From NCBI GenBank assembly GCA_001724265.1, contig MEDY01000141.1, forward strand, positions 1-64,000: a DNA stretch of 64,000 nt. The letters run 5' to 3'. Under the pieces are notes generated by a model. That model was not told the DNA's origin. It was given only the letters and a program-made list of their open reading frames with translations, and searched no databases. The position numbers and the translations under genes are program-made. The stretch comes from Rhizaria sp. SCN 62-66. Lineage: Eukaryota. Shown here piece after piece: positions 27,201 through 49,406 of this stretch. Numbering within the stretch: position 1 is the stretch's first letter; the number at the start of each line of letters is the position of its first letter.

Positions 27201-30200
27201 GAACTGCGTGGCAGTGTACAGAAACTTAACACCAAGCGATGAAGACGAAAACTTATTAACAACCGAGTTTGTAGGGAAGACAGTGCTAACAGACGTCAGC
27301 AACGACAGCCCTGCGCAGGCAGGCTAAACGGACACAGAAACGGCAGTCGGAGAAAGCGCGCGAAGTGGGTAGGCGTTGTAAATATAGATGTTGACCTCAA
27401 GTGTAACGTAATGCTCGTTACGCCCGTAGTCAGCAGCATACGCGCGCTTGCTCTGCACCATGTATGAGAAGAAGTCACTGGTGTTTGCTGGCCGCATGTT
27501 GATGACATTTAATGATGGCACTTTCTTGCTCTGATAAGCAAGTGAATAAAGCTTAATAGCAGTGCTTGGCAGCACAAAAGGATCACCAGGGGTTGCGAGA
27601 GCGCTGTTGGTAAGTGAAAGAAGCCCCATATTTTGAAGTGTACATGTAATTACGGAATCGCCGCCTGAATATGTTACGGTCGTTGTTTTAAACGTAAATG
27701 TGCTCTGTGAACGCGAAACGAGAGTGCATCCACTGCCGCTGACAACATTGACGGACGTAAAGTCGACTGCGTTACTAGTAAACGCAAACTGCGAACTCGA
27801 TGTCAGAGTGTCGTCAGTGACGACGTTAAAAGTGCCCGTCGCTGAAGCGGCAGCAATGTCAGGCAAGCCCGATGTGGGGGCCAGTGTAAGCGACACAGGC
27901 GTGTATGAAAAGCGCGATGAGATTGTGCGCGTAAAACTGACATCGTTGATTGCGGTTCGCATTACGGTGCCTTGTACTGTCGTAAAGCAATTGAATGGCA
28001 ACACCATGTTGCTGAGAACTGAACTAAGAGCAGTCCCGTGATCGAGTGTTAACGCAGCGGAAAATCGGTACTTAAACGGCGTCGCTGGCCGCGGTAGGCA
28101 TGCCACTGGCGGATCAACGTAGAGTGAGTTGTACGCTGCGCACTCAGTTGACAGCTCGGGATTTACGACGCCGATCGGATTGCTAAAGTCCAACGAGACG
28201 CCAGCACACACTGGATTTGTTGATAGGATCACGAGAGTTTTGTTGAGAGGAACACTTTTCGTATAGCTCCGATACAAAAAGTAAATATCAATGCTGGCCA
28301 CGGTGCGGTTTGGCGACATAAAAAATTGCGAAGACGTTGTCACAATAAATGGTTGGACAACTGAATCAGCAACGTCATAGTCGGAAATTCCCGACAGCGA
28401 CGGCACAACAGTCCTTGCAGAGGTACTTGGTGTACGCACAGCATCCGATGAAACAGTTGTGGTGCTAATTGCATAGTTTGTACTAGAATATACAACGACT
28501 CCGTATGGAAACCGACAAGTCCCACAAATTTGCATGACGTGGACAGCCATGTACGCCGTGGTGGAGCCGCCAGAGATTGCACAGGTGACTGAAATAATCG
28601 GGTTTACGCCGGTGGTGACTACAGGCGCGGACACGTTACAGTTTGGATGTGGATATTGCTGGGGGAGTATAGTATCGCTCTCAACAGTTGACACAGCAAC
28701 GTGGTCGTTCGCGTCCAAATAGTCGATGACGCTGTACGGGATCTGGAAAGACACCATCATTGCGGTCGTGCGCCTAAAGCTGATAATAGAATGACTGTGC
28801 GCGCCGGTACGGTAGATATTAGCAGCGGAAATGTTAGGATATTCACCAACAACGACCGAGCTCGACGATGTTTGCAGATCAAAATAGCTATTTTGCAACC
28901 TGACAATTACTACAGGCTCGGCGTCAGTCATAGTCACATCAGAAAAGTCGGTATTGACAGCCAGCGCATCCGCCTGTGGAGGCGTTGTTGCAACAGCACT
29001 TACACCGGCACTTGCAAGCGACACTGCAAGCAGCGCATCGTATTGCGCAAGCGTGACTGTGACGGGGCCAAACCGGAGCACGCGCGGGGTAAACACACCG
29101 GGGGCATCGGCAGTCACAGCGGCACAACCCGAGAATTCGAGGCTCTGTACGGTCAAAGGCGTTACTGTCGTGCACGAAAAAGACTGTCCTGTCACAAGCA
29201 CGGTTGCGTCCGTAAAGCTAAATAACGACGCCAGTACAGACGAAGACAGCACGAGGCGGAAGCCCCAGTTGGCGGGCAGCGCGGCGTGGGCAAAGATTGT
29301 GATCTAGAATGACAGATTCCACGGAAAACTCATAATCGCAAGCTTGTCGCGTGTCCGTGTGTCGCCCCCTGGCATCCGAATCGCATAAGGCGCAAACTGC
29401 ACGTCGTACAGCTGCGTTTGAGCGGTCGTCGTCGCAGTCACAGAGCGCGCCGGCGCAGCGGTGGCGGCCGAAGCAAAAGACATCACGAGGCAGTCTGCGG
29501 GAGCGGCAATGCTGCTGGTGGCAACGGCAACAGAAATGGTCGTATCAGTGCTCACGACAGCCATCGCGCTGCTGCGGACAAGCGTGCCCGTGGCACCTGA
29601 GATTATTGTTACGTCAGAGCAAACAGAGCTAAACGTGTACGTCTCGTTGACAGAGGCTGGCGCAGTAGGGTACACATATGCGCGCAGCTCATAAGCGTAC
29701 TGGCGCGCGCTGTTTGTAACCGCGCGCCGCACGCGCCGCAACAGCGACAGAGGTCGCCAGTGGAAAACAGGGGCCGGACCGCTCGGGGGCGGGCTCAGCG
29801 CAAGGCTGCCGGCCGCGTCCACGACCGTAGCGCTGCTTTCGAGCGAGAGACGCAGCGCGCCTGGGACAAGTGTGTACAGCGTTGGCAGCGCTGCAGAGCC
29901 GACAACAGCGGTGAGCCTCAGTCCGGTGAGGATGCATTTGACTGCAGTGGCGCTGGCAACAATGCGCGTGACTTCGATGTGCACGGAGCTGTTTGTGGCT
30001 GTGATGAGCGCGCAGTCAGACCCGCCGGCAGCGGCGGCGTCGGCGGCTGACACGGTTTGCGCGGCGGAGAGGTCCAAGCCAGCAAACGCGCCCTCGGAGC
30101 GGAACATGAGCTGTACTCCGCGGACTAGCACCGCGCCGGGGGAGATGGAAAGCCGTCCCGTTGCCACAACCACAAGCGTTGTTGCAGAAGAGAGATCGGC

Positions 30201-31923
30201 GCCAGGCGTGATCGTGAGCGCCAGAGGTGTGTAGCTGAACGAGGACGTCACATCAGCAATGACGCCACTAACAGTGCTCGCGGCGTTCATCGTGGTCGCA
30301 AACACGGCGCTGCTGTTATCAACTGCAACGCGCACCAACACTGCGTTTGCGGGCATCGCCGCGCCGGGCAGCGCTGTTGTGCTGCCGAAGAGGCCGGTCA
30401 GCTGCAGTTCAAGGCTGTTGCCAGTCGCCGCAGCGAGGGCGCCACAGGGGCAGCGGGCGCTCAGCACGGTGTCCCCGGTCAGCGTTACATTGCAGCCGGC
30501 GTTGGCAACTGCCGCGGAGGCCGCGAAGGCCAGCGGCGCGGTGGCGGCAAGGCGCAGCGTAATGACAGCATGTGTGCCGAAAGTGCACAGCGCTTCGGGC
30601 ACGGCGCTGCCGCGCCACGTGCGCAACACCGCAGTGAATAGCGAATTCGCCGCGTCGACCGCGGTGGCCGTGAGGAGAGTCAGCGACAGCGCGGTTTGCT
30701 CGTCCGTGAGCGCCGCCGTGTACGCCGCCGTCGCGCTGCCGCAGCCGAGGTATTGATAGCGCGTGGCAGACGTGACGCGGTCCTGCAGCGCGGGCCGCAC
30801 GCTGAGAGTGAGCGTGTCGGCGCTCTCACCATCGGCAAGAGCCGCGGGCGCGGGGATGCGAAACCACAGCGACATCGGCGTGTTCTGCGCAAAAACCACG
30901 TCTGTGAACGCGGCGCCGAGGTTAAGTGCAAACACCGCGCTGGCGCCGTTGTCGAGCGCGTTCACGGCGGTAACATCGGCGACCGCGTCAGACATGGCTC
31001 CAGGCAACACTGGTGCGGAGAAGGGCAGTGAAACGCTGCCCGGCGCAACAGCGGCGAGTAGTGAGACCGAGCCCGCGCGCACGGCTGTCAGCGAAAGCAC
31101 AAGGCGCAGCGCGGGCGCGGTGTTGAAGCTGGCGCGAACGAAGTCCTGTAGTCGCGTGAGCGCGGCGGTGTCCCAGTCCGACAGCGCGACGTGCACAAGC
31201 AGCGTGTTGGCGTCGCTGGCGACGCGTGTGACGGCGAGCGCGGCGCGGTAAAGCGGACGCGTGACGAGCGTGGGTGCTGCTGTGAGCGCAACGGTCCCGT
31301 CGAGGCGCAAGTACTGCGTGGCGAGGGACACGAGTGCGGGGCGCCAGAGAGCGTCGGTCGAGGAAGAGCAGCCAGGCAAGGGCGCCGTGTCGCGAGTCAA
31401 CGCAGAGGTCGTCCAAGCGCCCACGGGAAAAGACGCGGGGGGCGCGGTATCGAACGCAGACGCGGAGCTAAGAGTTGAGCATTTGAGAAAATACGATTAT
31501 TAATGTGAGTATCAGCGAGTTGTACATGTGTGTTATATTTCATTAATTTTAAGTTGTGCAAGATGTTAAGACGTACCAGCTGCTAATGGTGATAGAAGTG
31601 GCCCCGGAGGCAACAGTCGCGCACGGAGTCTCCGCGGCGCGGACTGCAAGCGCGAGGTACGCGGCGGCGGGCGCCACGAAGGTGATATTGGTCGCACTCA
31701 TCGCGATCGCAGACGCCGCACATAGCGCGGTATCCAAGCACGTGACGGCAACGTCAACGTCGAAGATGATGGTGCGCGAGGCGGCCACCACGCTCGGGGC
31801 CGAGTCGTACACGGTCATCACGGTGGACAACACGCGGAAGCCTTGGAGTGTCGCCGTCGTCACGGCGGTGGCAGTGGCGGGCGAAGTGAGAGTGAGCACA
31901 CTCAGCAGCGCAGCAAAGAACAT
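240..31923 (-). CDS. Giant (~10,524 aa) signal-peptide-bearing multi-pass membrane/adhesion-type protein. Exon 1 31923-31577, exon 2 31467-240, with three in-frame TAG codons read through (29304-29306, 27324-27326, 24285-24287)
   Basis: ATG at 31923 starts a hydrophobic signal peptide (MFFAALLSVLTLTSPATA). A phase-2 intron (31576-31468) joins it in frame to ORF 29304..31424. ORFs 29304..31424, 27324..29252, 24285..27302 and 240..24206 share one frame and are separated only by single TAG codons. The gene ends at TAA 240-242. Spliced length is 31575 nt = 10525 codons. Domain order: ~750-aa repeats, beta-propeller-like segments, Cys-paired Ig-like repeats, 8 Sushi/CCP, calcium-binding EGF, IPT/TIG, CxxC (GCC2/GCC3-like) repeats, TM bundle. 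Confidence 0.8.
930..4290 (-). other. C-terminal multi-pass transmembrane region of the giant protein, split by a long Ser/Pro-rich low-complexity insert (~3900-1620)
   Basis: Hydrophobic helices (VAYLIMIATFAAAVVVCGVL, FWVTSIGIMFLPLMGLLLPMLFF, FFVVTLGLPMLIFWVVGIPFFAWYML and others). The motif FLYRGYKPKRYYWFLVEMARKACLV resembles the TM tails of large protist adhesion-like proteins. Confidence 0.75.
4930..5930 (-). other. IPT/TIG-like domains followed by CxxC repeats (GCC2/GCC3, ephrin-receptor-like)
   Basis: TIG-like: LTVSGSGF...ISGRQC...CRLPAGTG and LVLRGENFG...IGGLLC...CYTPG. Repeats: CPPGQH, CAPGTA, CIAGFY, CPVGTY, CPRGTF, CAPGTF, CPLGA. Confidence 0.7.
6745..8640 (-). repeat. Eight tandem Sushi/CCP (SCR) domains plus one calcium-binding EGF domain
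   Basis: Eight repeats of C...Y/F-x-C-x-x-G...C...G-x-W...P-x-C (e.g. YEYGCESGFTLNG..CTAGGWSSVTAPLC; AVYTCETGFILSG..CTASGTWLPASPTC), then DIDEC...CVNTFGSYVC. Confidence 0.85.
8650..12800 (-). repeat. About 10-11 tandem ~110-aa beta-rich (Ig-like) units, each with a Cys pair
   Basis: Recurring C-x-F-like motif (PPCTFS, DACAFA, GVCAFR, AQCTFA, SDCVFE, GMCGFT, PVCAFR, AACTFA) with a second Cys ~25-35 aa later, at roughly regular spacing. Confidence 0.55.
13280..16500 (-). other. Two beta-propeller-like (WD40/YVTN-like) segments in the ectodomain of the giant protein
   Basis: Blade-like strings: YAITVAPDETTLFVNVDNRRILVI, ITVTAAALHKPTGEFYVATKEGLI, VATLAVHPTGQMLMYSC, IVSMAYSQHGAYLAV. Confidence 0.5.
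21000..31460 (-). repeat. Four to five diverged tandem ~725-775-aa protein repeat units at the N-terminus of the giant protein
   Basis: A landmark motif recurs about every 2.2-2.3 kb: YLRLDGTV (~31305), PRVLRFGPV (~29075), PRVLRIGPV (~26750), PVSLRFGPV (~24512), PRTLRFSATV (~22338). Other recurring motifs: DPFVLPSTAIKL / DPYVLRTSAVTL / DPFKMLASAMRL and INMRPAN / LNLRPAS / LELRPTN. Confidence 0.75.
31468..31576 (-). other. Spliceosomal intron (109 nt, phase 2) of the giant gene
   Basis: Minus-strand donor TG|GTACGT, AT-rich body, acceptor CTCTTAG|C. Splicing gives ...ITISSCSASAFDT... in frame. Confidence 0.85.
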
Positions 31924-34315
31924 GATAGCAGAGAGAGAAAAGACTCGGCAATACGCAGAAGGCCGCGCTGCCGCCAAGGAAAACCGCCAGTTCATGGAGC
32001 AAAGAAGCCAGGACGGGTTGGCTCAGTGCAAAAGCAAGACCAGAAAATCGGACAGTAACCAATCAGTGTGAGATCGCGCAAGCGTAAACCCCGCTAAAGC
32101 GCAGAAAACCAAAGGATTTGCTTTGCCGAGTGTGTATATAGAGCGAAAGACCGAGCTAACTAGCGTCCAGTGTGGGGACGGCGGCGTGCTCGGGCAACGG
32201 TTTGGGCAACGGTTTGAAAAAGCTGCTCTCGGGAGCTGTTTCCAACACTATACGTCATAAAACGCAAAAGTCAACATGGTGAAAAAAAGTTATGTAAGCG
32301 GTAATATTGTAAAAAAAAGTTTAAATTCAGCATCTTGCAGATTTAAGGCATGGCACCCGATGGCAGATGTCCTAGATGAAGTGCGGTGAGATATTTGAAT
32401 TTTGAATATTGAAGCTAAAATCTCACTGTCAGTCAATCGTCACTAAGGTTATAAATATCATAAATAGATATTACCATAGATGAATTAATTTAACAAAAGA
32501 GATGGAGGAAGAAAAACCGATAATATCATGTTGAAAAATTGTCATATTCAAATTGGACGATCGTTCCTCTGGGCTCGCTCCCGGTTATATGGCTGATCGA
32601 AACAATCGACATGCCCCAACGCCGACTGATCGCAAAGAGGTTCGTGTACAGTTGAGCGGCGGCGAGTTACAGGTTTCGGTGCCATATGTGAGCTGTCCAA
32701 CAAAAGCTATATATATGGGCCACAATTGTATGTTCACTTAGTCACCGTTTTGTTTCTACGTATAATGCTGCCCTGTCCTATCTAAAGGCAATGTGGAGTC
32801 TCCTCGAGGCGTTCCTTCCGCCAAGGATAGATATAAGCATATGATTGCGTCTCAAAAATGAGTGCATCGTTATTAAATTGTGAAAAATAAATACGCGGGT
32901 TACCAAACATTTTTTCAACCCGACTCTTTCTCGGACGTCTTTGCAGCCTTGTGAGACCTGGGTCGGCTTCAGATCGCGTTCGCAGACCAGAAAACAAATC
33001 AGTATGATATGCGTTGAAAACATTGTTTCATAACATTCCGTGCGGTAAAAGCACGCAAAACTGTTGAATTATGGTATTCACTTGCACTACTGCGAATAGT
33101 TGCCTAAAAGCGTCATATACTTGCCGTTACAGTCAATCGAAGATTTGCACTCTCCTTCCCGGTGAACATGGAGGTTGGGAATGCTAGTCTATTTATTTGA
33201 CGATGCAGACGATGAAAATGATCGCAGCTGCAAAATTTGGTTTTGCCGCATTGCTTTTGACTATACAACGGATGATTAATTGTTCCTGGCGATTTTTTCA
33301 CGCAGAAATCTGATTTGTTATCGTCTTGACATGGGAGCAGCGACCAAATAATCTTAGTGCAAAACAGTCCTGTGACAAACAACGGCATTCTCTGCTCGCA
33401 AATTTTAAATACCATTCAATTCTTCAGTTAAGATTTGCATTTTTGACCTCTTCCATGTTTTATCACCAAAGTCGGCATCTATTCTTGTGGGTAACTCCCC
33501 ACTGAAGCACTGATCTGTGAAGAGATTCCTGAATATTACTACCTAAGGTCGATTTAATACTCATTGTCAACGCAAAATTACTTGATTAATGCAGAAATTG
33601 TGATTTTTCATACTTATTGGTGTGCGCTTTTGCTGCTGATTTCCACGTTCTTATCCCCCTGATGTATGGATGAAAAAGCTTTCGATCGTCATTTATTCGA
33701 TTGCCTAAAGTCGATTGCCTAAAGTTAGATGAGCTGAAGATTACTGTAAAGCCTTGCTGACGCGGGAATTTTCGCACTTTTCAGTTTCGCCCAGGATACA
33801 AAGCACAGTTTATTGAGAGGCATGCAAACAATTTCAGAGCTCTATTGTTTTTATTTCGATTTAGCACCGACGGACAGACAACACATGTTTATGAAGACGG
33901 GTGCTTCGTCATCGCTCTTCGTCATTGTGAAGAACGCACACAGTAAGTACACACCTCTACTCTAGAGGGGTTTATATGTAGCAATCAATCACGCCAACAA
34001 TCATGGATACAGGAAGACTTCGCACAGATACATATTTTAGCAACCAATACTAATTTTCACAGGAGCAGATCCAGAAACCACAGTAACTGAACAACAAAAC
34101 ACAGTTGCTACACGTTAATCTCGAGTCATATACGTCCGGATATACAAGCTACATGACATGCTATCGCAAGCAATATACTCTCGCCACCATCTCCGTATTC
34201 ATCAATTAGAGAGACATACAGTGCAACCATCCCCATTTGGAGAGGGCTTAAACTATTCTGTTCATACGAGGACAAGCACGCGTTCTCGTGCACACTCACG
34301 CGTTACGCTGCCCAC

Positions 34316-35398
34316 TCACGCGGGCCCCATGACAAAGCCGGCGACGGCAAAGACGAGGAACAGCGCCCCGCCGATGGCGTTGACAGCGCGTTCGCTGATA
34401 CGCGAGGCGAGAAGTTTGCCACCCACGACCGCAAGTCCCGTACACATGGCGTGTCCGATGAACGAGCCCAGTGTCACGCCGTACGGGTTCTTGCTCGCGG
34501 CCATGGCGATGGTGGAGATCTGCGACCGGTCGCCCCACTCGGCGAGAAAGGTCATTGTGAAACACTGGATCATGATGGGGGTGAGACACCGGCGCAGAGA
34601 GAGCTGGACAGATGAAGCCAGACCCGGCACCATGTCTTTCTTGAGGGCCTCGCCGGCCTCGACGTCGCCGGCGTCGTGCTCGGCCGCGGCGGACTTAAGC
34701 GCCTGCATCTCGCAGTCATCATCGTCGTCGTTGTCGCGCGCGCTGATCACGTTGCCCTTACCACTGCTGCCACCACTGCTGTTTGAATGGGCACTTTGTT
34801 TCGCAGCGGCGAGCTCCTCCTCAACCTCCTGCATCTCCTCGGCCGCGGCGCCGCCCTCCGAGGTAAGCACGGTGTGCAGCAGCTTGACGCCGAAGACGAC
34901 AAAGAGCACACACGACGCGAGATGCGTGTATTGCTTCGGGAGCAGCGCCGGGAGCGTCATACCCAGCCCGACGGACAGCACCGTCATCACTGCCAGCGCG
35001 GCGCCCGCAGAGAGGAAGATGGCGCGGCGCGAGTGCGACATGGCGAGGATGGCGGCAATAAAAAACGTCTTGTCGCCGAGCTCGGACACGAGGATCATGG
35101 CCCAGGTGGACATGAAGGCCTCGATGAAGCCGGGCATGACGAGTCCGGCTCCAGCGGGGTCGGCCGCGCCCGAGTCGACCACGGGCGGCAGCAGCGCCAC
35201 GGGCATTGTCAGCGCGGTCGACGGCAATGCAGGCGCAGCGGCGGCGGCCACAGTGGAGCCGATAACCGCGGCGTTGGGGTTGTCCGCGCCGAGGTTCGCG
35301 CTGGCGAGGATAGGGGTGACGGTGAGTAGCGCGAGCGAGACGGCGCTGAGCAGCAGCGCCAGCGCAGGGCGCGCGCGGGACACGGGCGGGGAAGGCAT
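34316..35398 (-). CDS. GDT1: GDT1/TMEM165 (UPF0016) Ca2+/Mn2+ transporter
   Basis: Two UPF0016 signature motifs (SELGDKTFF and AEWGDRSQI) with flanking TM helices and an acidic loop. Likely start MPSPPVSRARPALALLL at 35398 (the ORF extends to 35512). Stop TGA. Confidence 0.92.
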   Translation of the reverse strand: MPSPPVSRARPALALLLSAVSLALLTVTPILASANLGADNPNAAVIGSTVAAAAAPALPSTALTMPVALLPPVVDSGAADPAGAGLVMPGFIEAFMSTWAMILVSELGDKTFFIAAILAMSHSRRAIFLSAGAALAVMTVLSVGLGMTLPALLPKQYTHLASCVLFVVFGVKLLHTVLTSEGGAAAEEMQEVEEELAAAKQSAHSNSSGGSSGKGNVISARDNDDDDDCEMQALKSAAAEHDAGDVEAGEALKKDMVPGLASSVQLSLRRCLTPIMIQCFTMTFLAEWGDRSQISTIAMAASKNPYGVTLGSFIGHAMCTGLAVVGGKLLASRISERAVNAIGGALFLVFAVAGFVMGPA

Positions 35399-35974
35399 GC
35401 GTGCGGCGAAAGAGGTGCTGGAGTTGGCGGGAGAGTTGCGGGTGAAAGAGCTGTCGTTGCGGGGTGCCAGCAGAAGTGAGAGAGAGAGTTGAGCAGGCAC
35501 ATGATTCGTCATCGGGCGCTGTGTTACACACGAGAATACACGTTAGGGGCGTAGGGTTACAGTCCAAGGTTTATGTAATTCAATTCAAAAAGAAGTTAAG
35601 TAAACGACACAGGAGCGCACAGCGATGACAGCGATGTGTTAATGACGCATTCATGTGATTTCTTTAGCTTGCCTCATCCCTCTCGAAGCCGAGGAGGCAT
35701 CGCAGTGGGTCGGCTTGAACTCGACATGACGGCTGTATCGAAAACAACTGTATCTAAGTGAAAATACCGCCCGTGGAATCAAGTTTTGCGTTTCTGTACT
35801 ATTTAGCGATTCTATTGTATTTATTGAAATAGTTACTTTGAAACCTCCACGTTGATGCATGTACTTTGTGGAGCGTGGACCTGTCTCATTGCCCGACGAC
35901 GTATCTCCTTGTGCCGTCCCTCTCTTCCGCTCTGTTCCATCTATTAAACAACTTTTCTGCGCCCTAGACTTCAC

Positions 35975-38420: not shown

Positions 38421-40709
38421 TTACCAGTAGTGGGGGCAGTAGGTGTCGGCGTAAGGGCAGCCGATGTTGCGCGGGGGCTTGTAATCAAGACGCACGTTGC
38501 GCTTCTCCAGCAGAGTGAGCGGGCGGCCGCCGACCTCGGCGATCTTCTTCATGAAGTGCGCCTCCTGCCAGTACGAGATGAGCTCCTTGCGGGCGCGGCC
38601 GTAGGTGGGGAAGCAGCCCTTGGCGAGGATCGAGATGGCCGGGTCGGGGCGCTTGCTCATGAGGTGATACTTGACGACAGTGGTGAGGAACTGGTCAGAG
38701 TTGCGGAGGTGGCACGACTGAGGGATGCGGCCGCTCTTGTAGCCCGCATCGACGGAGTTGATCCACGCCTCGAGGCGCTGCACAGTACCGACCTCGGACG
38801 ACTGGAGGAACTGGGAGATCTCCGTGCCAAGGTTGAGGAACAGACGCGCCGCGAGGGGGTCCGTGGCGTGCTGCGCGAGCGCGAGTTCCCAGCCCTGGAT
38901 GAAGTACTGGTACGCCTTCTCGGGGTCAGACTGCAGCAGCGCGATGCAGCGCGTGGCGTGCGCCGTGGGGCGCTGCTCGAGCGAATGGCGGAAGTACGCG
39001 ATGGGCTCGTCGACCATGCCGACCTCGGCAGCGATGACACCGAGGTAGAAGCTGTGGAGCCAGGTGTAGCCCTTGGTCTTGGCGGACTTCTCGATCAGGG
39101 CGCGCCAGTCCTCGTCGACCTGGTACGACTGCGGCAGCGACGCGAGCGTGAGCGCGGAGAAGGTGTTATTGGTGAGGAGCTCGATCCAGGGGCGCGACTC
39201 ATCGTTCTCGATCAGAGTGAACTTGGCGCCGGGCGCGAGGCGGGCGCGCGCGTGGCCGACCGTCTTGCGGTAGAGCTCGTTGAGGCCGCCCCAGGGCATG
39301 CCCTCGTAGAGGATGTCCTTGTCCTCGGGGTCAACCATCGAGTACTCCTGGAAGAACTTGTGCATCTCGGTCATCTTGGCCGCAGTGACGCCGTTCTTGC
39401 CCTCCATCCAGCGGTTGATGCCGCCGATCGCCACGTCGTGGTCGCGGTTTTGCGACACCGCCGCGGAGACGTCAGCCGTGGTGCCCGCCTTGAACACCTC
39501 GGTCCACTCGAACACGGAGTCGGCGGCCAGGCGCCAGTTCTGCATCTGGGTCGGCGCGGGGCCCGTCTGGAGCTCGGCGTAGTCGCCCGTGCGGTTGGGC
39601 ATGACGCCCGCGGAGAGGAAGTCCTGCATGAAGCGGCCGGGACCGGTCTGGCCCCAGGTGAAGAACTTGGTGCCGTTGAGGGTGTGGCCGTGCCAGACGA
39701 AGTAGCCGTCGGCCTCGACGTGGGTGATGTAGCGGCGCTGGCCATCGGGGATGCGGAGGAAGTAGTCGCCCCAGATGATATTGCCGAGGAACGAGTGGTC
39801 CTGCGCCCACACGTTGTTGCCGAGCGGCGGCGCAAGGCCGGAGAAGGAGGTGTTCATGACCTCGGCGAAGTACGGCCAGGGCGCGTCGCGCACGGGGCCG
39901 GACGCCGTCTCGGCGACGTGGTCGGCGGGGGACAGAACGCGTGACTCAGGGGTGACGTGGTGCGCGACGCAAGTCCACCAGTAGCCGCGGAGGTCCCACT
40001 GGTGCGGGTTGGTGATCTTGGGGTGCATCCAGAGCTCGGCGCCGTCGTGGATCATGTCGACCTGCCAGACAGTGCCGTTGTAGCGGTCGAACTCGTAGAC
40101 GCGGACCATGGGGCCCATGCGGGTGGACATCTGCGCGACGTACACGGGCGACTCGGAGAAAGCCGAGTGGCCGATGATTCCGGGCGACCAGTTGAACTCG
40201 AGGCCACCAGCGGCCCAGGCCTTGAGGGCGCCGATGTTGGCGGGCTGGTGGGCCTTGTTGTCGAAGAACATGTCACGGCCGTTGACCTTGTCGACGGTGT
40301 TCCAGACCTTGCCGGCGACGGAAGGGACGACGTCGGTGCGGAGGTACTCGTTCTCCATGCGCACCACGGGAAGCTTCTCGGGCTGGCGGTCGCACGTCCA
40401 CTGGTCCTGGGTCAGGTACGGCAGCTGGGGCGAGCGGGTGTCGGCCATGGCGCCCTCGAAGATCTCGGGGCCGTTGGTGTCGTCGGGGGTGAAGGGGCGG
40501 AACGTGCCGCGGCCACCGCCGATAAACACGTGCGTGGCGCCACCTTCAACAGAGCCCTGGGAGAAAAGGAAACCGGGGAGGATGTTACCGGGAAGCACGC
40601 GCGACTCGATAATGTCGATGCTCTCCTTAGTAATAGTGCTCGGGCCAGCGGCGGCAAAGCACACCGCCGTGGCAACGAGAAGCGCCATGAACGTCTTGTG
40701 AAGACGCAT
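38421..40709 (-). CDS. DUF5107-domain protein with signal peptide and C-terminal TPR-like helices
   Basis: MENEYLRTDVVPSVAGKVW..VDKVNGRDMFFDN...PANIG..KAWAAGGLEFNW, YWWT, KFFTWG and YAELQTG match my recollection of DUF5107. Intronless, very high GC3, stop TAA. Confidence 0.8.
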   Translation of the reverse strand: MRLHKTFMALLVATAVCFAAAGPSTITKESIDIIESRVLPGNILPGFLFSQGSVEGGATHVFIGGGRGTFRPFTPDDTNGPEIFEGAMADTRSPQLPYLTQDQWTCDRQPEKLPVVRMENEYLRTDVVPSVAGKVWNTVDKVNGRDMFFDNKAHQPANIGALKAWAAGGLEFNWSPGIIGHSAFSESPVYVAQMSTRMGPMVRVYEFDRYNGTVWQVDMIHDGAELWMHPKITNPHQWDLRGYWWTCVAHHVTPESRVLSPADHVAETASGPVRDAPWPYFAEVMNTSFSGLAPPLGNNVWAQDHSFLGNIIWGDYFLRIPDGQRRYITHVEADGYFVWHGHTLNGTKFFTWGQTGPGRFMQDFLSAGVMPNRTGDYAELQTGPAPTQMQNWRLAADSVFEWTEVFKAGTTADVSAAVSQNRDHDVAIGGINRWMEGKNGVTAAKMTEMHKFFQEYSMVDPEDKDILYEGMPWGGLNELYRKTVGHARARLAPGAKFTLIENDESRPWIELLTNNTFSALTLASLPQSYQVDEDWRALIEKSAKTKGYTWLHSFYLGVIAAEVGMVDEPIAYFRHSLEQRPTAHATRCIALLQSDPEKAYQYFIQGWELALAQHATDPLAARLFLNLGTEISQFLQSSEVGTVQRLEAWINSVDAGYKSGRIPQSCHLRNSDQFLTTVVKYHLMSKRPDPAISILAKGCFPTYGRARKELISYWQEAHFMKKIAEVGGRPLTLLEKRNVRLDYKPPRNIGCPYADTYCPHYW

Positions 40710-41238: not shown

Positions 41239-42020
41239 ATGTCCCAGCACTGCTCATGGGTCTTCTCATGCAGCAGTAGCCCTACCGCCCTCAACTCGTA
41301 CGTGTTTGATTTGTTTTTAAGACATGCGATTAGCCACGCGCTTATACTTCTTCTGGCGCATTTTATGTGCTTATTGGCATTTTGCCCCCTTAGTACGACA
41401 TGATCTTCTGACTCACACCATGATGTTTTTTTCAACCGTTCCTTCCCCCCCATTCGCCCCCACAGCGACGATGAAGCAGCGTTCCAACCGCGCTCTCTTC
41501 CGTCATCTATCTCGGTGTCTCTGCGCGTCTACCCCGCGCCCTCCGTGCTCTCCCCACTCAACGTCTTCCCTCTCCACAACGGCCCCGCCGCCTCCGCCAC
41601 CGCTCCTGTAACTTCCGCCGCGTCGGCGTCCTCTTCCGCTCTGCCAGCGCCGCTCTCGGCCGCCGACGCTGCCCCCAGCCTCCCCGCGGCGGCCGCGAAC
41701 ACTTCCGCGCTCGTGCAGATCTGGTCCGCCTCGCTCCCGCTCCCAGAGACCGAGGCCGGCGCCGCGACCGCAGACTCCGTCGCTCACGACGCGAGTGTTG
41801 GCGCATCAGAGCGTGTGACGACGACGACGACTACTGTGACGGTTCCGTGCCCGCGGTTTGCGCGGATTGACTGGTCGGAGTTTGCCGCTGAGGACGAAGC
41901 CACACTCACGGTCACGCTGCCGCCTCCGAGCCCCGTCGCAGCGGCTGCCACTCCTGTTGCTGCTTTTGCTTCGTCCTCAACAAACGGCGCTATGACGGCT
42001 ACGATGACAGCCACTGCTGC

Positions 42021-42053
<33 letters not shown>

Positions 42054-45000
42054 AGCGCAGCCTCTGGCGGGTCCTGTGGCGCAAACGACCGCGCGCGAGG
42101 CCGTGTCTCTGTTCATCCCGTCGTATGCCTTCGAAGCCGAGTCGTCACGTTCACCCTCACCCGGCCCCGCCCCCGCCCCCGCCTCGGCACAGGCGCAGTC
42201 ACTCTCGCTATCATCACAGCCAGTCTCCGCTGCGAACTCCACTGCGAGCGAGAATGTGACACGCACCCTGTCGCTGCCGCCGCTGCCTAGTGCGCTATCG
42301 TTGTCCCTCGCAAGCACCCCGTCCCGGTCCTTCGTCTTCACGTTCCCGGGCGGCGTCACGGTCACTGCCACGGCCACCGCGCTGCCAGCCACTGGCCCAC
42401 CGCCGTTTCAGCCGCACTCAGCGATAACAGCGCAGGAGGACCGTGGCGCGGCGCCGCGGGACAGCGCTGTAGCCGTGCACAATCCCGTCTCCGCGTCTAA
42501 CAACTGCGGCGGCGGCGGTGGTGGTGTGCCTACTGCGACGACAGTCGGGGCTGACTCTAGCCAGGGCTCGCTGGCCAGCGAAAGCGACTCTATTGGATCT
42601 GCCACTGCTGCTACAACAGCAGCAGCGGTAGTGCCGCGGCGGCCGGTCGCGTTCGAGGTCAACTTCGCCGCCCTGCCTTCGCCCTCAGCCTCCGACGCTG
42701 ACGGCGCCGGTGCCGACGCAAACAGCGTGGGCGATGGCAGCTGTGGCGATGTCAGCGTGGCGAGTGCGCTTTCACATCACCAGCCCCAACCGAGCACGCC
42801 CCGCACCTCCGTCCGCACCTCCGCCAGCGCCGCTGCCGCGTCTGCGTCCGCGTCTGCGTCTGCCTCTGCGTCGTCTGCGGCGGCGGCGGCTGCGGCGGCC
42901 GCGGACGCGGAGGCGGGATACAGCGGGGGCGCAGTGCTCCGGACTCCGGCCCCACGCGCCTCGACACGGCACCGCTACAGCAGCCACAGCAATAGCGGCA
43001 GCAAGAGCAAGGTTAGAGACAGTAAGAACAGCCCTTCGAGCCGCGCCCACGCTGCGAGCACTGATCGCGCCGACATAGACGACGACGGCGACGGCGACGG
43101 TGATCAGAGTGCGTTTTGCGGTCTGGGAGACGACGACGGCATCGACAGGCTGCACGAGCGTCAGTTCATTACTATCCCGTACTTCCCTCATTCGTCGACG
43201 ACGTCCGCCAACGCCACAGCCAACGCGGGCGGCTCTGCTGCTGGCTCGGCCTCGGCGTCGGCCTGCTCCTCCCCGTCCTCATCCTCAGCCGCTTTCTCTT
43301 CTGCACAGAACAGCAGCAACAGCAACAGCAACAACAACAGCAACACTGCGGCTAGCGCAAGCAGCGCTGCCGTTTGCACAGGGAGTAACTCCAGTGCTTA
43401 TGCAGCGCCCTGGTCCGCGCGCCGCCCATCCGGCGCTACTGCCTCCGCCGCCGCGGCCGCCGCGGCTGCGGCGGCGGCAGCCGCCGCGAGCGCCGCGGCC
43501 GCCGCCCCGCCGACCGACCCGTCGAAGCTTCCGTTCCCGTCCCGTTTGGCGTACCCGCTGCCGCTGGCCGCCGCAGCCCGCGCCGCCGCGGCCGCGCCGC
43601 CGCCCGCGCTCACCGCCGCCGCCGCGGCCGCCGCGGCCGTGGCCCTCGCCGACCGCACGACGGTGGTGTGGACCGCGCGACACGAGGAGCTTTTGCTCTT
43701 ACCTCTCCGCGCGGAGGCTTATTTAGCGCTCGCGCCGGCACAAGCGGCCGCCGCGGACGGCGGCGGCGGCCGCGTCGGTCTGGCCCGCTTGCTGCGGCCC
43801 GTCGCGGCCGCTCTCGCGGTGCAAACGGCCGAGCTGCGGTCGCAAGTCGCGAAGCTCGCGCTGGTGACCGTGGGCGCGCTGGCCCGCGAGTGCGGCCCCG
43901 CCTTCGTACTATTGGCCGACGCGCTGCTGCCCGCGCTTGCCGTGCAGCTGTCTTCGTCGAAGCAGATGCTCAGCGCCGCCGCCACGGAGTCGCTGAACCA
44001 GGCCGCCGACGCCGCGGAGCACCCGCACTTCCTCGCGTTGGTGCTGGCACTGGTGCGGGAGAGCAAGCAGGACCGCATCGCGCTCGGTTTGGCGCGCGCG
44101 CTGACGATTATACTGGAGCGTTGGCCAGGGGAGCTGTTTGAGCTCTCGCCGACGGAGGCCCTCCTCACTGCCCCCTTTTCACCGCATTGCAGCAGCAACA
44201 ACAACAACAATAACAAGGACGCTGTCGCGGCTTCAAGTGATTCCGTTGCTGCTGCGACGCCGTCTACGACTGCGACTTCTGCTGCTGCGGCCGCTGCGAC
44301 TGAGCCACCGACTCACAGCCACAGCCACGGTCAGTCGTGCGGTCATGCTAGCCGGACTAGGCCTCACCCTCATCAGTCACCTGCGGGTGAGAATACGACC
44401 ACTGCACCGACTGCGACGCCGGCGCGTGCCACAGCGAGCGGGCCGCTCAGCGCGCGCTCCCGCGGCACCGGCGCCGCCGCCGCCGTGCCAGTCTCCGTGG
44501 CCGCCGCCGCCGTGGCCCCTCTCATCGCCGCCGCGACGGCCGCCGCCGCCGCCGCCGCGCAGGCCCCGATCCGCGCGCCCCCGCCGCCCCCCGCCTGGTT
44601 ACTATCACACGCGACCATCCGCGACGCCGTGTTCGCCGTGCTGCCTGTGCTGCTCTCCCATGCCGGTCCGCTGACGCGCGCCAAGGCGCGGACCGCGCTG
44701 TACCACGCGTGGCTGCGCTGGCCCGCCGCCGCCGAGGCCGTGCTGGTGCGGCAAAGCGTGGCCGTGCGCGGCGCGTTCGACGCGCAGTGGCCCGACTTCG
44801 CTGAAGCAGAGGCGCTGGACCCCACTTTGCGCGAGGAGCGCGCGGCCCATCGTACTCAGGCGGGGGATGCCGCGCTCGCTCTCGCGCCCAATCTCGCCGC
44901 AGCGGCGGCGGCCGAGGCTGCTGCGGCGGCTGCGGCGGCTGAGTACGACGTAACTACTGGCGCCGCGACAGACGTTGTGGCGTTTGCAGTGCCGACAGTG

Positions 45001-48000
45001 CCCGCCGGCGCCCGCGCCCGCATTGCCGCCTCATCTGCGTCGTCTGCTGCGTCGGGACCGATGGTCATGGGCACCGTCACGAGCACTCCTGTGAGTACAC
45101 GTGTGCGGTCTGCGCGAGTGCCGTTTTCCCGCGCACGTTTCGCTGCCAGCGCCGCGGTCGCCGCTTCCTCAGCCTCAGCCTCGGCGTCGAGCAGTACGAA
45201 CCCCGGTGCGGCCTCCCTGACTGCGACTGCGCCCCCGGGCCAGGCTTCTGCGCCACCGGGGTCCTCTGGCGGGCCGTCAGCCGGTAGCCTCGGCGTCGGC
45301 GTCCTCGTCGGCAGTGTTACCGCTAGCGGTGGCGGCGGCGTTGTCGGGGGCGGCGGGTCGGGTGTTTTTGCGTTCGGCAGCGAACGGCTCGATCCCAGTG
45401 CGGCCAATACACCGGTGTGCCGGCCCCGCAAGACCCCCGCTCTCGCGAAGCTCCACACCGGCGCCGGCGCTGGCGACACTGGCGCTGGCGCTGGCGCTGG
45501 CGGTGGCGGTGCAACTGGCATCTCGCAGTCAGGTGACGGTGGCGGCAGTGAGAGCGAGGAGGGAGGCTTGCTGCCGCTGATGTAGCTGCCGAGCAGCCCC
45601 TTAGCCTCTCCTAAGTACCCCTACAGCGCGCACAACGGTCACAACGCTAGCAATAATGGGGATAGTAAAGATGAGAGCTATGAATCGATGTCGCTCAGCG
45701 GCTCGATGGCGATGTAGCGTGATTCACCGTGCAAGAACAACAGTAGCAGTGGCAACAACACCACTCAGAACAGTGTAGTTAATGGCAAGACAGCGAAGTG
45801 TGCGCCGCTCAGTGCGAGCCCGCTGCCACCGCCGCCGCCGCCGCCACCTGCGCCCGAGCCAGCTTCTGACTCCGACTCAGATGCTGATGCTGGCAATGGC
45901 CAGGGTGATGCAAACGATGCGAACGCAGACTCAGAACCTGCCGCAAAGCCAGCGGCGACGGTGTCTGTGGCGAAGACAGCGACCGATAGCGAGACCAAGA
46001 CAGCGACTCCAGCTGCTGCTACTTCGTCTACGAAGCGTGGTCTCTTGCTTTTAAGGGGTACTTACATGTCTCTCGGCGAGGACCTCGATGCATACTGCCA
46101 GCCGCCCCCCGGCTTCACTTCGGAGCAACCAGCGGAAGACGGCGGCCTAAATTCGACAACGAGCGGTTTAACTTCCGCCGGAGCAGGCGACACCTCGTCA
46201 CTATCGTCGTCGTCGTGCCCCGACTGCAGCGCGGAGCCACAGTCCACGGCTTCCGCTTCCGCTTCCGCTTCCGCTTCCGGGGCTGGTGATGGTGCTGGTG
46301 GTGCCGTGTCTGCTGTGTCTGGAGTTTCTGCGTGTGTTTCTATGTGCCTTAACCACCGCCATTACAGCGGTGACGGGCCTCATAGCGCCTCCGCTGCTGG
46401 CGCGCACAGGCACGGCCACAGGCCCGGTCATAATCCTGGTCACGGACACGGTCACGGTCACGGTTATGGTCACAGCACTGGTCTCGGCCACGGTGCGACC
46501 GGCGCCCGGCGCGGCGCCGCCGCTGGAGACAGCGGCACGCACGCCGGCACAGCTGGCTTCGCGGTGAGCGCCGGTCAATACGGGCCACTTATCGGCTCAC
46601 TCGCCACCGCGAACGGCAACGGCAACGGGAGTGGTAACAGTCGCAATGGGGGCTTGGGACAGGCAGCGTCGCCGTTCAACGGTGCATACATGCTGTCCAA
46701 GGGCGACGACATCGACGCTTACCCCGCGGTCGCAAGCACTAACTCTAACACCGACAACAACAACAACATTGAGAACGATGATAGCGCTGCCGCCGATGCT
46801 GCTGTAGGTGCGAGTCAGGACGCAGCGGTGATGTTGTCGTCTCTGGTGCTCCCGTCCGCCAACTCTGCCCCGCGCCGCCGCTCCGCCCCCACCAACGGCT
46901 CTGCTGCGACACAGGCTGTCTCTGCATCCGCAGTCGCCGGATCCTCGGTGACCGTGGCGGATGTGGGCCGCGTGACGGCGCTGCGGGCGCGCGCGCGCGC
47001 CACGGGTGACTGGTCGCACGTTCTCCTGCCCCCGCAGCCCGATCAGAACAACAACTGCGGCGGCAGCGCTGGCGACGAGAGTCACACCGTTGCAGAGCCG
47101 CACGTGCTACGGCTGCAAGTTGTGTCAGACGTACACTTGGAGCGCTTCCCCTCCCGCTACCCCTCGGCCTCTGAACTCGCGGCCGCGCTCGACGACGTCA
47201 TCATCCCCTCGGCGCCCGTGCTCGTGCTCGCCGGCGACATCGGCTGCCCGGCCACGCGCGCGGGCGCGGCGCTGTATCTATCGTTCTTGCAGCTCCAGGC
47301 CGGTCGGTTCGAGCTGGTACTCGTGCTAGCGGGGAACCACGAGTTCTACTCACCGCTCACGCCCACAGGTCCGCAACAGCCCGCGTCGTCTGCCGCCGCG
47401 ACGTCGACAGCTTTTGTTGCTGTAGCGTCGCCGCCGAATGCGGCGCTGTACGCACGGGGCAAGAGCAACAGCAACGGTGCCAGCGAGAGCATCGCCAATG
47501 ATATCCCCGTCACGGAACCCGCTTCTGCTGCTGAGGCTGCGGCTGAGGCTGAGGCGGAGGCTGCTGCTGCTGCGTTGAATGGCGCTGTGAGCGTCGCATG
47601 TGTTCGCCGCACAATGCGCGAACTGTGCCGTGACGCCGGTGATAACGTACTGTTTCTCGACCGTGATAGCGTCACTTTCACCGCTCCCGCGCCTCATTTA
47701 CACTTTGCACAACCACACTTACAGTCGCAGTCAGCAGAGCAACCCACTACTGACACGAGTGCGAGTGTGCGCGTGTGTGGTGCGACGCTGTGGTCGTTTG
47801 TAGGCCACGAGCACGCAACGCATGTGGAGCGCGCGGTCAGCGATTACGCGTACTCGTTCGTTGACAACGAAGCATACGCGGCGACACCGCTCTGCAGCAG
47901 CGATTGCACCGACACCACGGTTGCTGTTGCCGTCTTGTCGACGGCAGACAACTGCAATAGCAACGCAGTGACTGAGTCGACGACTGCAGAGGCCGCAGAG

Positions 48001-48921
48001 GCCGCTGCGACTGCGGCTGCGGTTAGCCCTCCTGCGGTCTCTTCGCAACAACATCAGCAACCCCAGCAACAGCAGCAACAGCTACAGCAACAACAGAACA
48101 GGTTGGCACGCGTGCGCCGCATGTGCGTCAAGGACACGGTAGCGATGCACAGTGCCGATGTGGCCTTCTTGCACGCGCAGGTCGCCGTGGCGCGCGCTGA
48201 GGGGCAGCGGCTCTGCGTGCTGACGCACTACCCGCCCACGTTTAGCAACACGTCCGACCCGCGCTTTAAGGTACGCGAACGATCATTTCGTGGCCTTGTT
48301 TCATTCTCAGTTTGTTCAACATGTCTCTCCTTTTCCTTGTCTCTCACTCACCATTTACTTTTCTTGCTGTTGCATTTTCGCCGTATTTGTGACTGTAGGA
48401 TTCTCCTTTCCGCTGGGCGTTTGCGAGCGCGCTGGATGATTTCATGGCACAGTCGACGCCGACACTGCACACCTGGGTCGCTGGTCACACGCATTGGTAC
48501 GTCTACTATTTATAGCGTTTCATAACCACTGCTCAACATGTGTCGCACCAAACTTCACTCTTTCTGCTTAGTAGCAATATTTTTGGATGCATCGAGTCAC
48601 AATTCATGGTAACTATGATGAATTCTTACTCAAGTTATTGGTTCGTGCCATTTTTCATTGTTTTTCGCCGAAATTGTCAAATTGTCGTGCAGGTCGTACG
48701 ACTTTGAGCACCGTGGCGTGCGCCTCGTCTCGAACCAGTTCGGGTATCTCGGCATCCCGGAGACCAAGTTTAACCGCGCCTTCACCGTCGACATCCCGGT
48801 CACCGTGCCGCTATCTATGTAGGCGTCCCGCGAGCCCTCAAAGGCTGCAGGTGCGATGTAGGCGGTTGTGGAGACTGTTGCGACTGACTCACTGCCGGGG
48901 AAGTGTTGCGCTGTCGTTTGA
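41239..48921 (+). CDS. ~2,396-aa fusion: CLASP-N/TOG-like HEAT region + calcineurin-like metallophosphoesterase + C-terminal CaaX. Exons 41239-41297, 41466-48270, 48399-48496, 48693-48921; four in-frame TAG codons (45583, 45715, 48820, 48859)
   Basis: CLASP-like ELRSQVAKLALVTVGALARECGPAFVLLADALLPAL. Phosphoesterase motifs SDVHLE, LAGDIG, AGNHEFY, GATLWS, THYPP, then after splicing WVAGHTHW and SNQFGY. ORFs 41515..45585 and 45961..48525 are in the same frame, joined by coding-like sequence interrupted only by TAG. Read-through ends ...GKCCAVV-TGA. Spliced length is 7191 nt. Confidence 0.7.
41298..41465 (+). other. Spliceosomal intron (168 nt, phase 2)
   Basis: TC|GTACGT donor, CTGAC branch-like motif, pyrimidine tract, CACAG|C acceptor. 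It joins MSQHCSW...ALNS to DDEAAF in frame. Confidence 0.75.
48271..48398 (+). other. Spliceosomal intron (128 nt, phase 0)
   Basis: AAG|GTACGC ... TGTAG|GAT. Splicing restores the phosphoesterase segment DSPFRWAFASALDDF...WVAGHTH. Confidence 0.88.
48497..48692 (+). other. Spliceosomal intron (196 nt, phase 2)
   Basis: TG|GTACGT ... TGCAG|G. Splicing gives GHTHWSYDFEHRGVRLVSNQFGY, the expected end of this phosphoesterase family. Confidence 0.88.
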
Positions 48922-49406
48922 CGCGAATGACAATTGCACCGCGATATCTTTGCTTACCTTAACAATCATACTTAATTAAATAATAACATCTATATATAAT
49001 ATTGGTTTTATGTCTGAAACAGTATAGCACGTCATTTATGCGTGTTTTTCCCTCCAAATCGCGTTGAAACCACAACTCGCTTCCGTCAGCCTGGGGTACC
49101 TTCCGGCCTGTCTGCGGCGAGTCATTTTTACTTCGTTACCTAGTTATACTGTCCGTCAATACCAACACCCCGTTGTATTACACAACAAGGCATGCGCATA
49201 CATACTACTTCATTTAAAGCATGTCTTAACAGTGCGATATATCATGTCTTCGTCGTTGTTTTTGAGCCCTCACCTGACACTGTTCTACTACTGCAATGGC
49301 TCTTCTCACGAACGCCCCTTTTACCCCTCTTTTTCCTCCCATCAAGCTCTTCTTCACCCACTTACTGTGCTTGCACCCCGCGTGCTACATCTGACCCCCT
49401 AGCGCA

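Follow-up and report, generated by a model that had tools for sequence, protein, structure and literature searches.

The DNA analyzed here is a stretch of 64,000 nucleotides (nt), hereafter the window, that covers positions 1 to 64,000 of the forward strand of contig MEDY01000141.1 in assembly GCA_001724265.1, deposited as Rhizaria sp. SCN 62-66. This eukaryotic DNA is GC-rich, its introns and spacers being rich in AT and in pyrimidines, and several studies of bioreactors and wastewater have metagenome runs with near-identical sequence. Our subject is a gene on its plus strand for a calcineurin-like metallophosphoesterase (MPE). In the window reading, its final exon, exon 3, holds a region encoding Cys-Cys-Ala-Val-Val, which lies behind two in-frame TAG codons and directly before a TGA. 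We favor, with a probability of roughly 0.6, the joint reading that UAG is a sense codon in the source organism, that the MPE protein extends to the TGA at 48919 and that it ends in a CaaX-type lipid anchor.

Exon 1 matches the Pfam profile PF00149 at 21.5 bits (E 3.6e-4), exactly at the curated cut-off of 21.5; the score is borderline because low-complexity inserts divide the MPE domain. The metal-binding signatures occur in order, SDVHLE, LAGDIG and LAGNHEFY in exon 1 and AGHTHW in exon 2, and the corresponding motif blocks (D-x-H, G-D, G-N-H-E and G-H-x-H), which define the metallophosphoesterase family, are visible in homologues P0001-P0005. A homologue search with exon 1 gave 36 proteins with PF00149, all distant, the best being from Odontella (43% identity over 27% of the query), with metagenome proteins also among the better matches; the best MPE homologues share 33–55% identity over parts of the domain. 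Splicing of intron 2 is recorded in a cDNA-library contig (run X9, record 30) that links 48495 straight to 48692, with one G ambiguous. The match of this contig starts at 48397 and is preceded by 34 letters located elsewhere, which is what a junction of exons 1 and 2 would give, the junction itself not being listed. The donors of introns 1 and 2 are both GTACG.

Translation of 48694–48921 (+) gives SYDFEHRGVRLVSNQFGYLGIPETKFNRAFTVDIPVTVPLSM, stop, ASREPSKAAGAM, stop, AVVETVATDSLPGKCCAVV, stop, so that the C-terminal part of exon 3 reads ...FTVDIPVTVPLSM, TAG 48820, ASREPSKAAGAM, TAG 48859, AVVETVATDSLPGKCCAVV, TGA 48919. In codons, VPLSM is followed by TAG, 12 codons, TAG, 19 codons that end in GKCCAVV, and TGA, with 31 sense codons behind the first TAG. 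This reproduces exactly the translation in the initial annotation, which had described VPLSM, two TAGs and ...GKCCAVV-TGA followed by AT-rich 3′ sequence. The DNA contigs of runs X3 (48155–49249) and X4 (47631–49249), from two other studies, show no differing letter, and because they match the window letter for letter, the TAGs of the tail are not assembly errors.

A second cDNA-library contig (X9 record 31) is colinear with the window and unspliced over 48834–49078, reaching 157 nt past the TGA, and it carries TAG 48859 unchanged; thus, neither splicing nor editing removes this TAG in that molecule. The initial annotation had counted a poly(A) site upstream of 48921 as evidence for an earlier gene end, and record 31 instead runs on to 49078, in a run that is possibly DNA. 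The end of an RNA is not readable from assembled contigs, and the poly(A)-selected run X12, which has no depth at 48593–49249, has no bearing either way.

Table 1 Coordinates of the features discussed, as positions in the window
Feature	Position	Strand	Basis
Exon 1 end, N-terminal two thirds of the MPE domain, split by low-complexity inserts	46990..48270	+	Pfam PF00149
Intron 1, GT..AG, 128 nt, GC ~0.42	48271..48398	+	sequence, composition
Exon 2 (DSPFRWAFAS...WVAGHTHW), GHTH metal-binding motif	48399..48496	+	reading and X9 record 30
Intron 2, GT..AG, 196 nt	48497..48692	+	X9 record 30 junction
Exon 3, coding part: end of MPE domain, predicted 33-codon extension, TGA	48693..48921	+	proposed reading, coding statistics
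First in-frame TAG of the tail, ATG directly before	48820..48822	+	unchanged in X3 and X4 DNA contigs
Second in-frame TAG of the tail, ATG directly before	48859..48861	+	unchanged and unspliced in X9 record 31
C-C-A-V-V codons: predicted CaaX box (CAVV) with adjacent upstream Cys	48904..48918	+	translation; consensus in the available part of PMC11304957
TGA, proposed true terminator	48919..48921	+	GC step 0.62 to 0.29, codon score −1.14 afterwards
AT-rich 3′ untranslated region, minimum extent	48922..49078	+	X9 record 31, GC profile
In-frame TAG (after ATG) between the CLASP_N-like and MPE open reading frames	45583..45585	+	coding-like flanks, same frame
Second in-frame TAG (after ATG), same linker	45715..45717	+	coding-like flanks, same frame
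10,419-codon frame, internal stops only TAG at 29304-29306, 27324-27326 and 24285-24287; ends TAA	240..31496	-	reading of the open frame

Coding character of the tail

The composition of the DNA changes at the TGA and not at the first TAG: GC over 99 nt is 0.62 behind the first TAG and 0.29 behind the TGA, and in a control set, the sequence after seven TAA stops of other long open reading frames (ORFs), it is 0.24–0.52. Codon usage was scored after normalization to the base composition of each segment, with the tail taken as 48823–48918 and mononucleotide shuffles (n = 5000) as reference. The tail scores 0.17 in frame 0 versus −0.88 and −0.71 in the other frames. Two of the 5000 shuffles reach the frame 0 score (p = 0.0004) and none reaches the margin over the other frames, and the two halves of the tail, tested separately, give p values of about 0.008 each. 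In the controls, seven 3′ untranslated regions (3′UTRs) after TAA score between −0.67 and −1.78 with no frame preference, and the last 96 nt of seven coding sequences (CDSs) score between −0.12 and 0.43; the tail lies inside the latter range and outside the former, while the 96 nt after the TGA, at −1.14, are UTR-like. An earlier, cruder codon score gave the same ordering but rendered the true exons 2 and 3 negative, and codon scores of short segments must for this reason be regarded as noisy. On these data, the MPE coding sequence probably continues in frame through both TAGs to the TGA at 48919. The proposal of the initial annotation that 48919–48921 is the real stop is thus upheld at the level of codon statistics and the GC step, with the C-terminus of the protein itself predicted from them.

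Under the standard code, the MPE gene would end at TAG 48820 (...VPLSM), the next 99 nt would be 3′UTR and the CaaX-like end would be a coincidence. The two open stretches, 12 and 19 codons long, would be nothing unusual on this account, as they do not go beyond chance at the window GC, where a stop is expected about every 30 codons; the ends of the MPE homologues and the lack of TAG in other long ORFs, both described below, also suit it. Nevertheless, the account leaves the CDS-like codon usage of the tail in frame 0, unlike that of the seven 3′UTR controls, to chance, and likewise the GC of 0.62 that persists up to the TGA, when GC drops immediately after the seven TAA stops. It would further require that four collinear in-frame pieces of a 31-kb ORF elsewhere in the window are separate, spacerless genes, and it must accept a CaaX end that arises by chance at a rate of ~0.4%. 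We therefore consider a gene end at the first TAG unlikely.

In-frame TAG codons across the window

Across the window, the tail included, every one of the seven in-frame stops within coding-like sequence is a TAG: three in a giant ORF on the minus strand, two in the linker between a CLASP_N-like ORF and the MPE ORF, and two in the tail. The giant ORF (31 kb, 10,419 codons) is devoid of internal TAA and TGA, and its Sushi, TIG and Ephrin_rec_like domains and membrane part are all encoded downstream of its three TAGs. When its internal repeats (~740 residues, 18–26% identity) are aligned, each TAG falls on a column that is occupied by residues. These residues, H/E/E, K/S/K/T and P/N/T/T, stem from paralogous repeats of 18–26% identity and give a faint hint that a polar amino acid may be encoded. 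In the linker, the CLASP_N-like ORF (41404–45582) and the MPE ORF form one frame via the TAGs at 45583 and 45715, without an AT-rich spacer. Coding scores are found in the shared frame only, both for the 44 codons between these TAGs and for the 117 codons behind the second, and the two stretches read as one and the same Ser/Asn/Pro-rich linker.

Gene ends show a different use of stop codons. Among 42 coding-like ORF ends, the seven with a following GC of at most 0.45 are all TAA, and the 11 ORFs that end in TAG have a following GC of at least 0.49. At the boundaries from coding to AT-rich sequence, TAA is found in 7 of 8 cases, TGA in 1 of 8 and TAG in 0 of 8, a small sample. The only domain-verified gene end is that of the cactin gene, in which the Pfam C-terminal domain ends on the last residue and is followed by TAA. 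The view of the initial annotation that UAG is a sense codon is supported by this pattern of TAG-only in-frame stops and of TAA or TGA at AT-rich boundaries, and for the window as a whole it is likely that UAG is decoded as an amino acid in the source organism. In such a code UAG would specify an amino acid, and UAA (mainly) and UGA would terminate, in the nuclear DNA of an uncultured eukaryote with introns, sampled from wastewater or bioreactors.

An alternative is that UAG is leaky, whereby most ribosomes would stop at 48820 to yield a soluble enzyme and a minority would read through to a lipid-anchored isoform. The tail is under coding constraint, its two UAGs in close succession resemble a throttle, UAG is uncommon and none lies within a conserved domain of the window, and the common ATG-TAG context could be a read-through context, all of which would fit leakage. 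However, the RNA around the TAGs is not more structured than shuffled sequence (z = +1.40, with 187 of 200 shuffles folding at least as well), and after two or three inefficient read-throughs in a row, hardly any product would remain. Three read-throughs would have to precede the Sushi, TIG and membrane parts of the giant ORF, and two would have to precede the MPE domain if this is fused with the ORF upstream. Moreover, no gene end in the window has TAG as the sole stop before AT-rich sequence, and leaky termination appears improbable.

The TAGs could also be recent nonsense mutations, either in decaying genes or as a strain-specific state, with the tail a freshly disabled coding end. The still coding-like tail is what would be seen after a recent loss, and some TAGs share short repeats and might have spread by local copying. 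Yet all seven lesions are of one kind, TAG, and the more than 13,000 affected codons contain no TAA, no TGA and no frameshift. Contigs of three studies spanning 2015–2025 carry the same letters, and the affected genes are represented in RNA libraries, all of which makes this explanation very unlikely.

Equally, the TAGs might be removed or altered in the mRNA, by mini-introns, by base editing, or by cleavage after UA and addition of poly(A) to make UAA. In Blastocystis, stops are created by poly(A) addition; ATGTAG contains both GT and AG, and repeat pairs bracket 43 nt (48819–48861) and 136 nt (45582–45717). However, splicing out the candidate mini-introns would in both cases lead into a frame with a non-coding score, their 5′ ends, GTAGC and GTAGG, are unlike the two verified GTACG donors, X9 record 31 starts within the 43-nt candidate and still shows TAG 48859, and the coding signal goes on after each TAG. 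Alteration of the mRNA is scarcely credible on this evidence. Two specific candidates, mini-introns via GT..AG in the ATGTAG pairs and +1 frameshifting at ATG-TAG, were tried and rejected; both lead into frames with a non-coding score, and X9 record 31 follows the DNA colinearly.

The four TAGs in the plus-strand gene (45580–45585, 45712–45717, 48817–48822 and 48856–48861, ATG included) all follow ATG and the three in the giant ORF do not. For comparison, 18 of 465 TAG trinucleotides on the plus strand of the window and 6 of 353 on the minus strand come after ATG (1.7–3.9%). The four sites form two pairs with direct repeats of 8–9 nt, GATGTAGC at 45579 and 45711 and ATGTAGGCG at 48817 and 48856, spaced 132 nt (GATGTAGC) and 39 nt (ATGTAGGCG) apart. 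The second copies of both pairs have GCGATGTAG in common, and the first copies are both preceded by TGCCGCT. As a plain motif, ATGTAG is not enriched in the window (24 found versus 17.2 expected; 7 of 100 shuffles reach 24). The link between ATG and TAG may have its origin either in a context that favors decoding or in a short motif that was copied locally.

As for the genes that contain these TAGs, the giant ORF (240–31496, −) comprises five divergent ~740-residue repeats, Sushi/TIG/Ephrin-receptor-like modules and a multi-pass membrane part, the last with a weak, below-cut-off match to TRP channels, and poly(A) RNA contigs cover parts of its 5′ end (29673–31023). If TAG is sense, 41404–48921 (+) would be one gene of ~2,400 codons with an unusual combination of CLASP_N-like and MPE domains. 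Seven of the eight long ORFs end in TAA (ends at 240, 37723, 38421, 51783, 56987, 60677 and 61200) despite a third-position GC of 0.55–0.90. Such a strong TAA preference is unusual for a genome with GC-rich coding sequence. A strong TAA bias is also described for Guttulinopsis and Rhizaria sp. exLh in the available part of PMC5304391.

A predicted lipid anchor

If both UAGs are decoded, the MPE protein would run 33 codons beyond TAG 48820, through the second TAG, and end in ...DSLPGKCCAVV. This predicted C-terminus fits the CaaX rule, with Cys at position −4, Ala as a1, Val as a2 and Val as X. The consensus for geranylgeranyltransferase I (GGTase-I) is Caa[L/F/I/M/V] with a preference for a branched-chain a2, as given in the accessible text of PMC11304957, and because Ala a1, Val a2 and Val X match it, geranylgeranylation is likelier than farnesylation. 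Thus, GGTase-I (farnesyltransferase being less likely) would prenylate the Cys at −4, the three C-terminal residues may be removed and the exposed end methylated, the Cys next to the prenylated one may be palmitoylated, and the outcome would be a phosphoesterase tethered to a membrane. Prenylation and palmitoylation of this end, as predicted from the motif alone, are plausible; that the CAVV box is in use is possible, at somewhat below even odds.

The frequency of such ends by chance was counted over open frames of at least 20 codons within the window. Strict C-[AVIL]-[AVIL]-X ends occur in 6 of 1613 frames under the standard code and in 6 of 1478 with TAG as sense (~0.4%), and among the counted frames a CaaX end preceded by a second Cys occurs once, in the MPE tail. 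With a chance of ~0.4% per frame end and some ten gene ends to choose from, the motif gives moderate independent support, and no more, for a sense UAG. The initial annotation had offered it as support independent of the repeat alignments; TAG does behave as a sense codon elsewhere in the window.

Ras/Rho-type ends carry an extra palmitoylated Cys beside the prenylated one. The predicted MPE end is similar to these and to GGTase-I CaaX substrates in that a flexible Pro-Gly-Lys and a second Cys lie directly upstream of the box. It also shares with the GGTase-I substrates the Cys at −4, the small or aliphatic a1, the branched-chain a2 and Val as X, so far as these are set out in the available part of PMC11304957. 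It differs in that the carrier is a calcineurin-like metallophosphoesterase and not a small GTPase, in that its lipid modification is predicted from sequence, and in that the motif exists only if two UAGs are decoded. Prenylated phosphoesterases are known from other families, namely PDE6 subunits, inositol 5-phosphatases and PRL phosphatases. In these, as predicted here, a C-terminal CaaX brings a soluble hydrolase fold to the membrane, although their catalytic families are unrelated to MPE.

A further parallel is provided by read-through that exposes a cryptic peroxisomal targeting signal 1 (PTS1), as in fungal glycolytic enzymes and human LDHB and MDH1. There too, a short in-frame extension after an annotated stop carries a signal that acts only at the extreme C-terminus. 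However, the PTS1 cases involve one leaky stop under the standard code, whereas there are two UAGs in the MPE tail, and the pattern across the window suggests that UAG is decoded generally.

For the MPE gene, the prediction shifts from a soluble to a membrane-tethered phosphoesterase, and the last 7–20 residues of the protein offer a simple experimental handle. If UAG is sense, gene calling with the standard code would truncate or split proteins of the source organism, in this window the giant surface protein, the possible CLASP-like/phosphoesterase fusion and the MPE C-terminus, and would hide localization signals that act only at the true end of a protein.

Homologues, known codes and the source organism

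Several observations weigh against a sense UAG with an extended MPE protein. The first concerns homologues. No close orthologue of the MPE gene or its tail was found in the homologue search, among the matches listed by the metagenome scan or in a search of 1.84 billion representatives. The 9 of 36 homologues that were inspected end 0–33 residues after the last conserved strand (FTVDI in the window), none of the nine has a comparable tail, and an end at the first TAG, eight residues after FTVDI, would be ordinary among them. These homologue ends therefore agree equally well with termination at the first TAG and with the extended C-terminus, and the standard code would account for the lack of a tail. 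The second concerns the codons themselves. TAG is very rare, with 7 in ~20,000 coding-like codons and none in the six other long ORFs, as would be the case under the standard code; no TAG stands at a species-conserved position that would assign it an amino acid. The shared 8–9-nt repeats mean that the four ATG-TAG sites may not be independent. As a terminator, TGA is otherwise seen once in the window, at an unverified gene end (34119–35542 region), and the window has no tRNA gene of any kind. Run X9 is flagged as possibly DNA, with only its spliced contig (record 30) proving cDNA content. Finally, we know of no metallophosphoesterase of this family that is prenylated.

Among the searches, that of the 1.84 billion representatives with a 75-residue query (exon 3 plus tail) returned the 54-amino-acid ORF of the locus itself and three proteins of 1,652–2,932 amino acids; the latter, matched in 4–21 stretches each, are taken as repeat noise. 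The metagenome scan gave at least two loci, L001 and L002, at 33–36% identity among the matches listed, with some patterns of low complexity. L001 lies on a dense, intron-less, bacterial-looking contig and its homologue ends in ...GLVVDVGP, and the homologue at L002 is cut at the contig end. One 290-residue metagenome homologue, P0003, ends in ...SPDFCLFI; its CLFI is formally C-a-a-X, and it aligns with the last strand of the domain and is probably a coincidence or the product of a truncated model.

Codes in which only UAG has been captured are known. In the accessible portion of PMC5304391, Rhizaria sp. exLh is described with UAG as Leu, on the basis of 384 UAGs that stand in frame at conserved Leu positions of 71 genes, with 56 UAA, 15 UGA and no UAG as terminators and with UAG also scarce in highly expressed genes; Iotanema spirale, from the same source, uses UAG for Gln and UAA/UGA as stops. 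UAG reassignments are also reported for phyllopharyngean ciliates in the available part of PMC11687900. The window resembles exLh and Iotanema, as portrayed in the excerpt, in that only UAG occurs in frame inside genes, in that UAA is the dominant stop alongside UGA, and in that UAG is rarer than ordinary codons. By contrast with exLh as described there, the window has seven in-frame TAGs in two or three genes and none at a conserved position. It differs from both in that its lineage looks different, with weak stramenopile-like matches, and in the link to a preceding AUG, which is not described for them in the available part of PMC5304391.

The stramenopile-like matches are those of cactin and MPE. 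Cactin, which a protein atlas gives as eukaryotic, has its best named match in Cafeteria roenbergensis (54%, among four proteins scored), and a scan of genome contigs with the cactin C-terminus gave no match. Together with the Odontella match of MPE, the Cafeteria match is a weak hint of a stramenopile-like lineage and not a placement. A literature search found no nuclear code variant for stramenopiles, with supplementary tables outside its reach.

Neither UAG-only reassignment, an already known pattern, nor CaaX, a textbook signal, is new in itself; the novelty lies in the organism and in what follows for the MPE gene. Departures of UAG alone are few, and a further independent case would be valuable, especially one with a rare, perhaps context-bound codon, as it would bear on how stop codons are captured. 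Tentatively, and at less than even odds, the window may come from an uncultured protist of wastewater, weakly stramenopile-like in its affinities, with a rare, context-tied sense UAG at an early or ambiguous stage of reassignment, on which the anchor, the fusion and the 10,419-residue protein would all depend.

Other parts of the window were noted in passing. An Rfam scan of the window gave no match. The segments 34119–35492 (+) and 34316–35542 (−) are overlapping open frames on opposite strands, both TGA-ended, with no Pfam match on the strand tested. At 39533–39964, a variant of a DUF5107 gene is present in the X12 (RNA) and X4 contigs with 18 differences in 432 nt, mostly multiples of three apart, which suggests a diverged allele, a paralogue or a sister strain under purifying selection. 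In the X4 contig, 1 nt is absent at 32400 (spacer) and 12 nt at 35710, and a few single-letter differences occur in the AT-rich spacer 32277–33825; these look like strain variation between samples.

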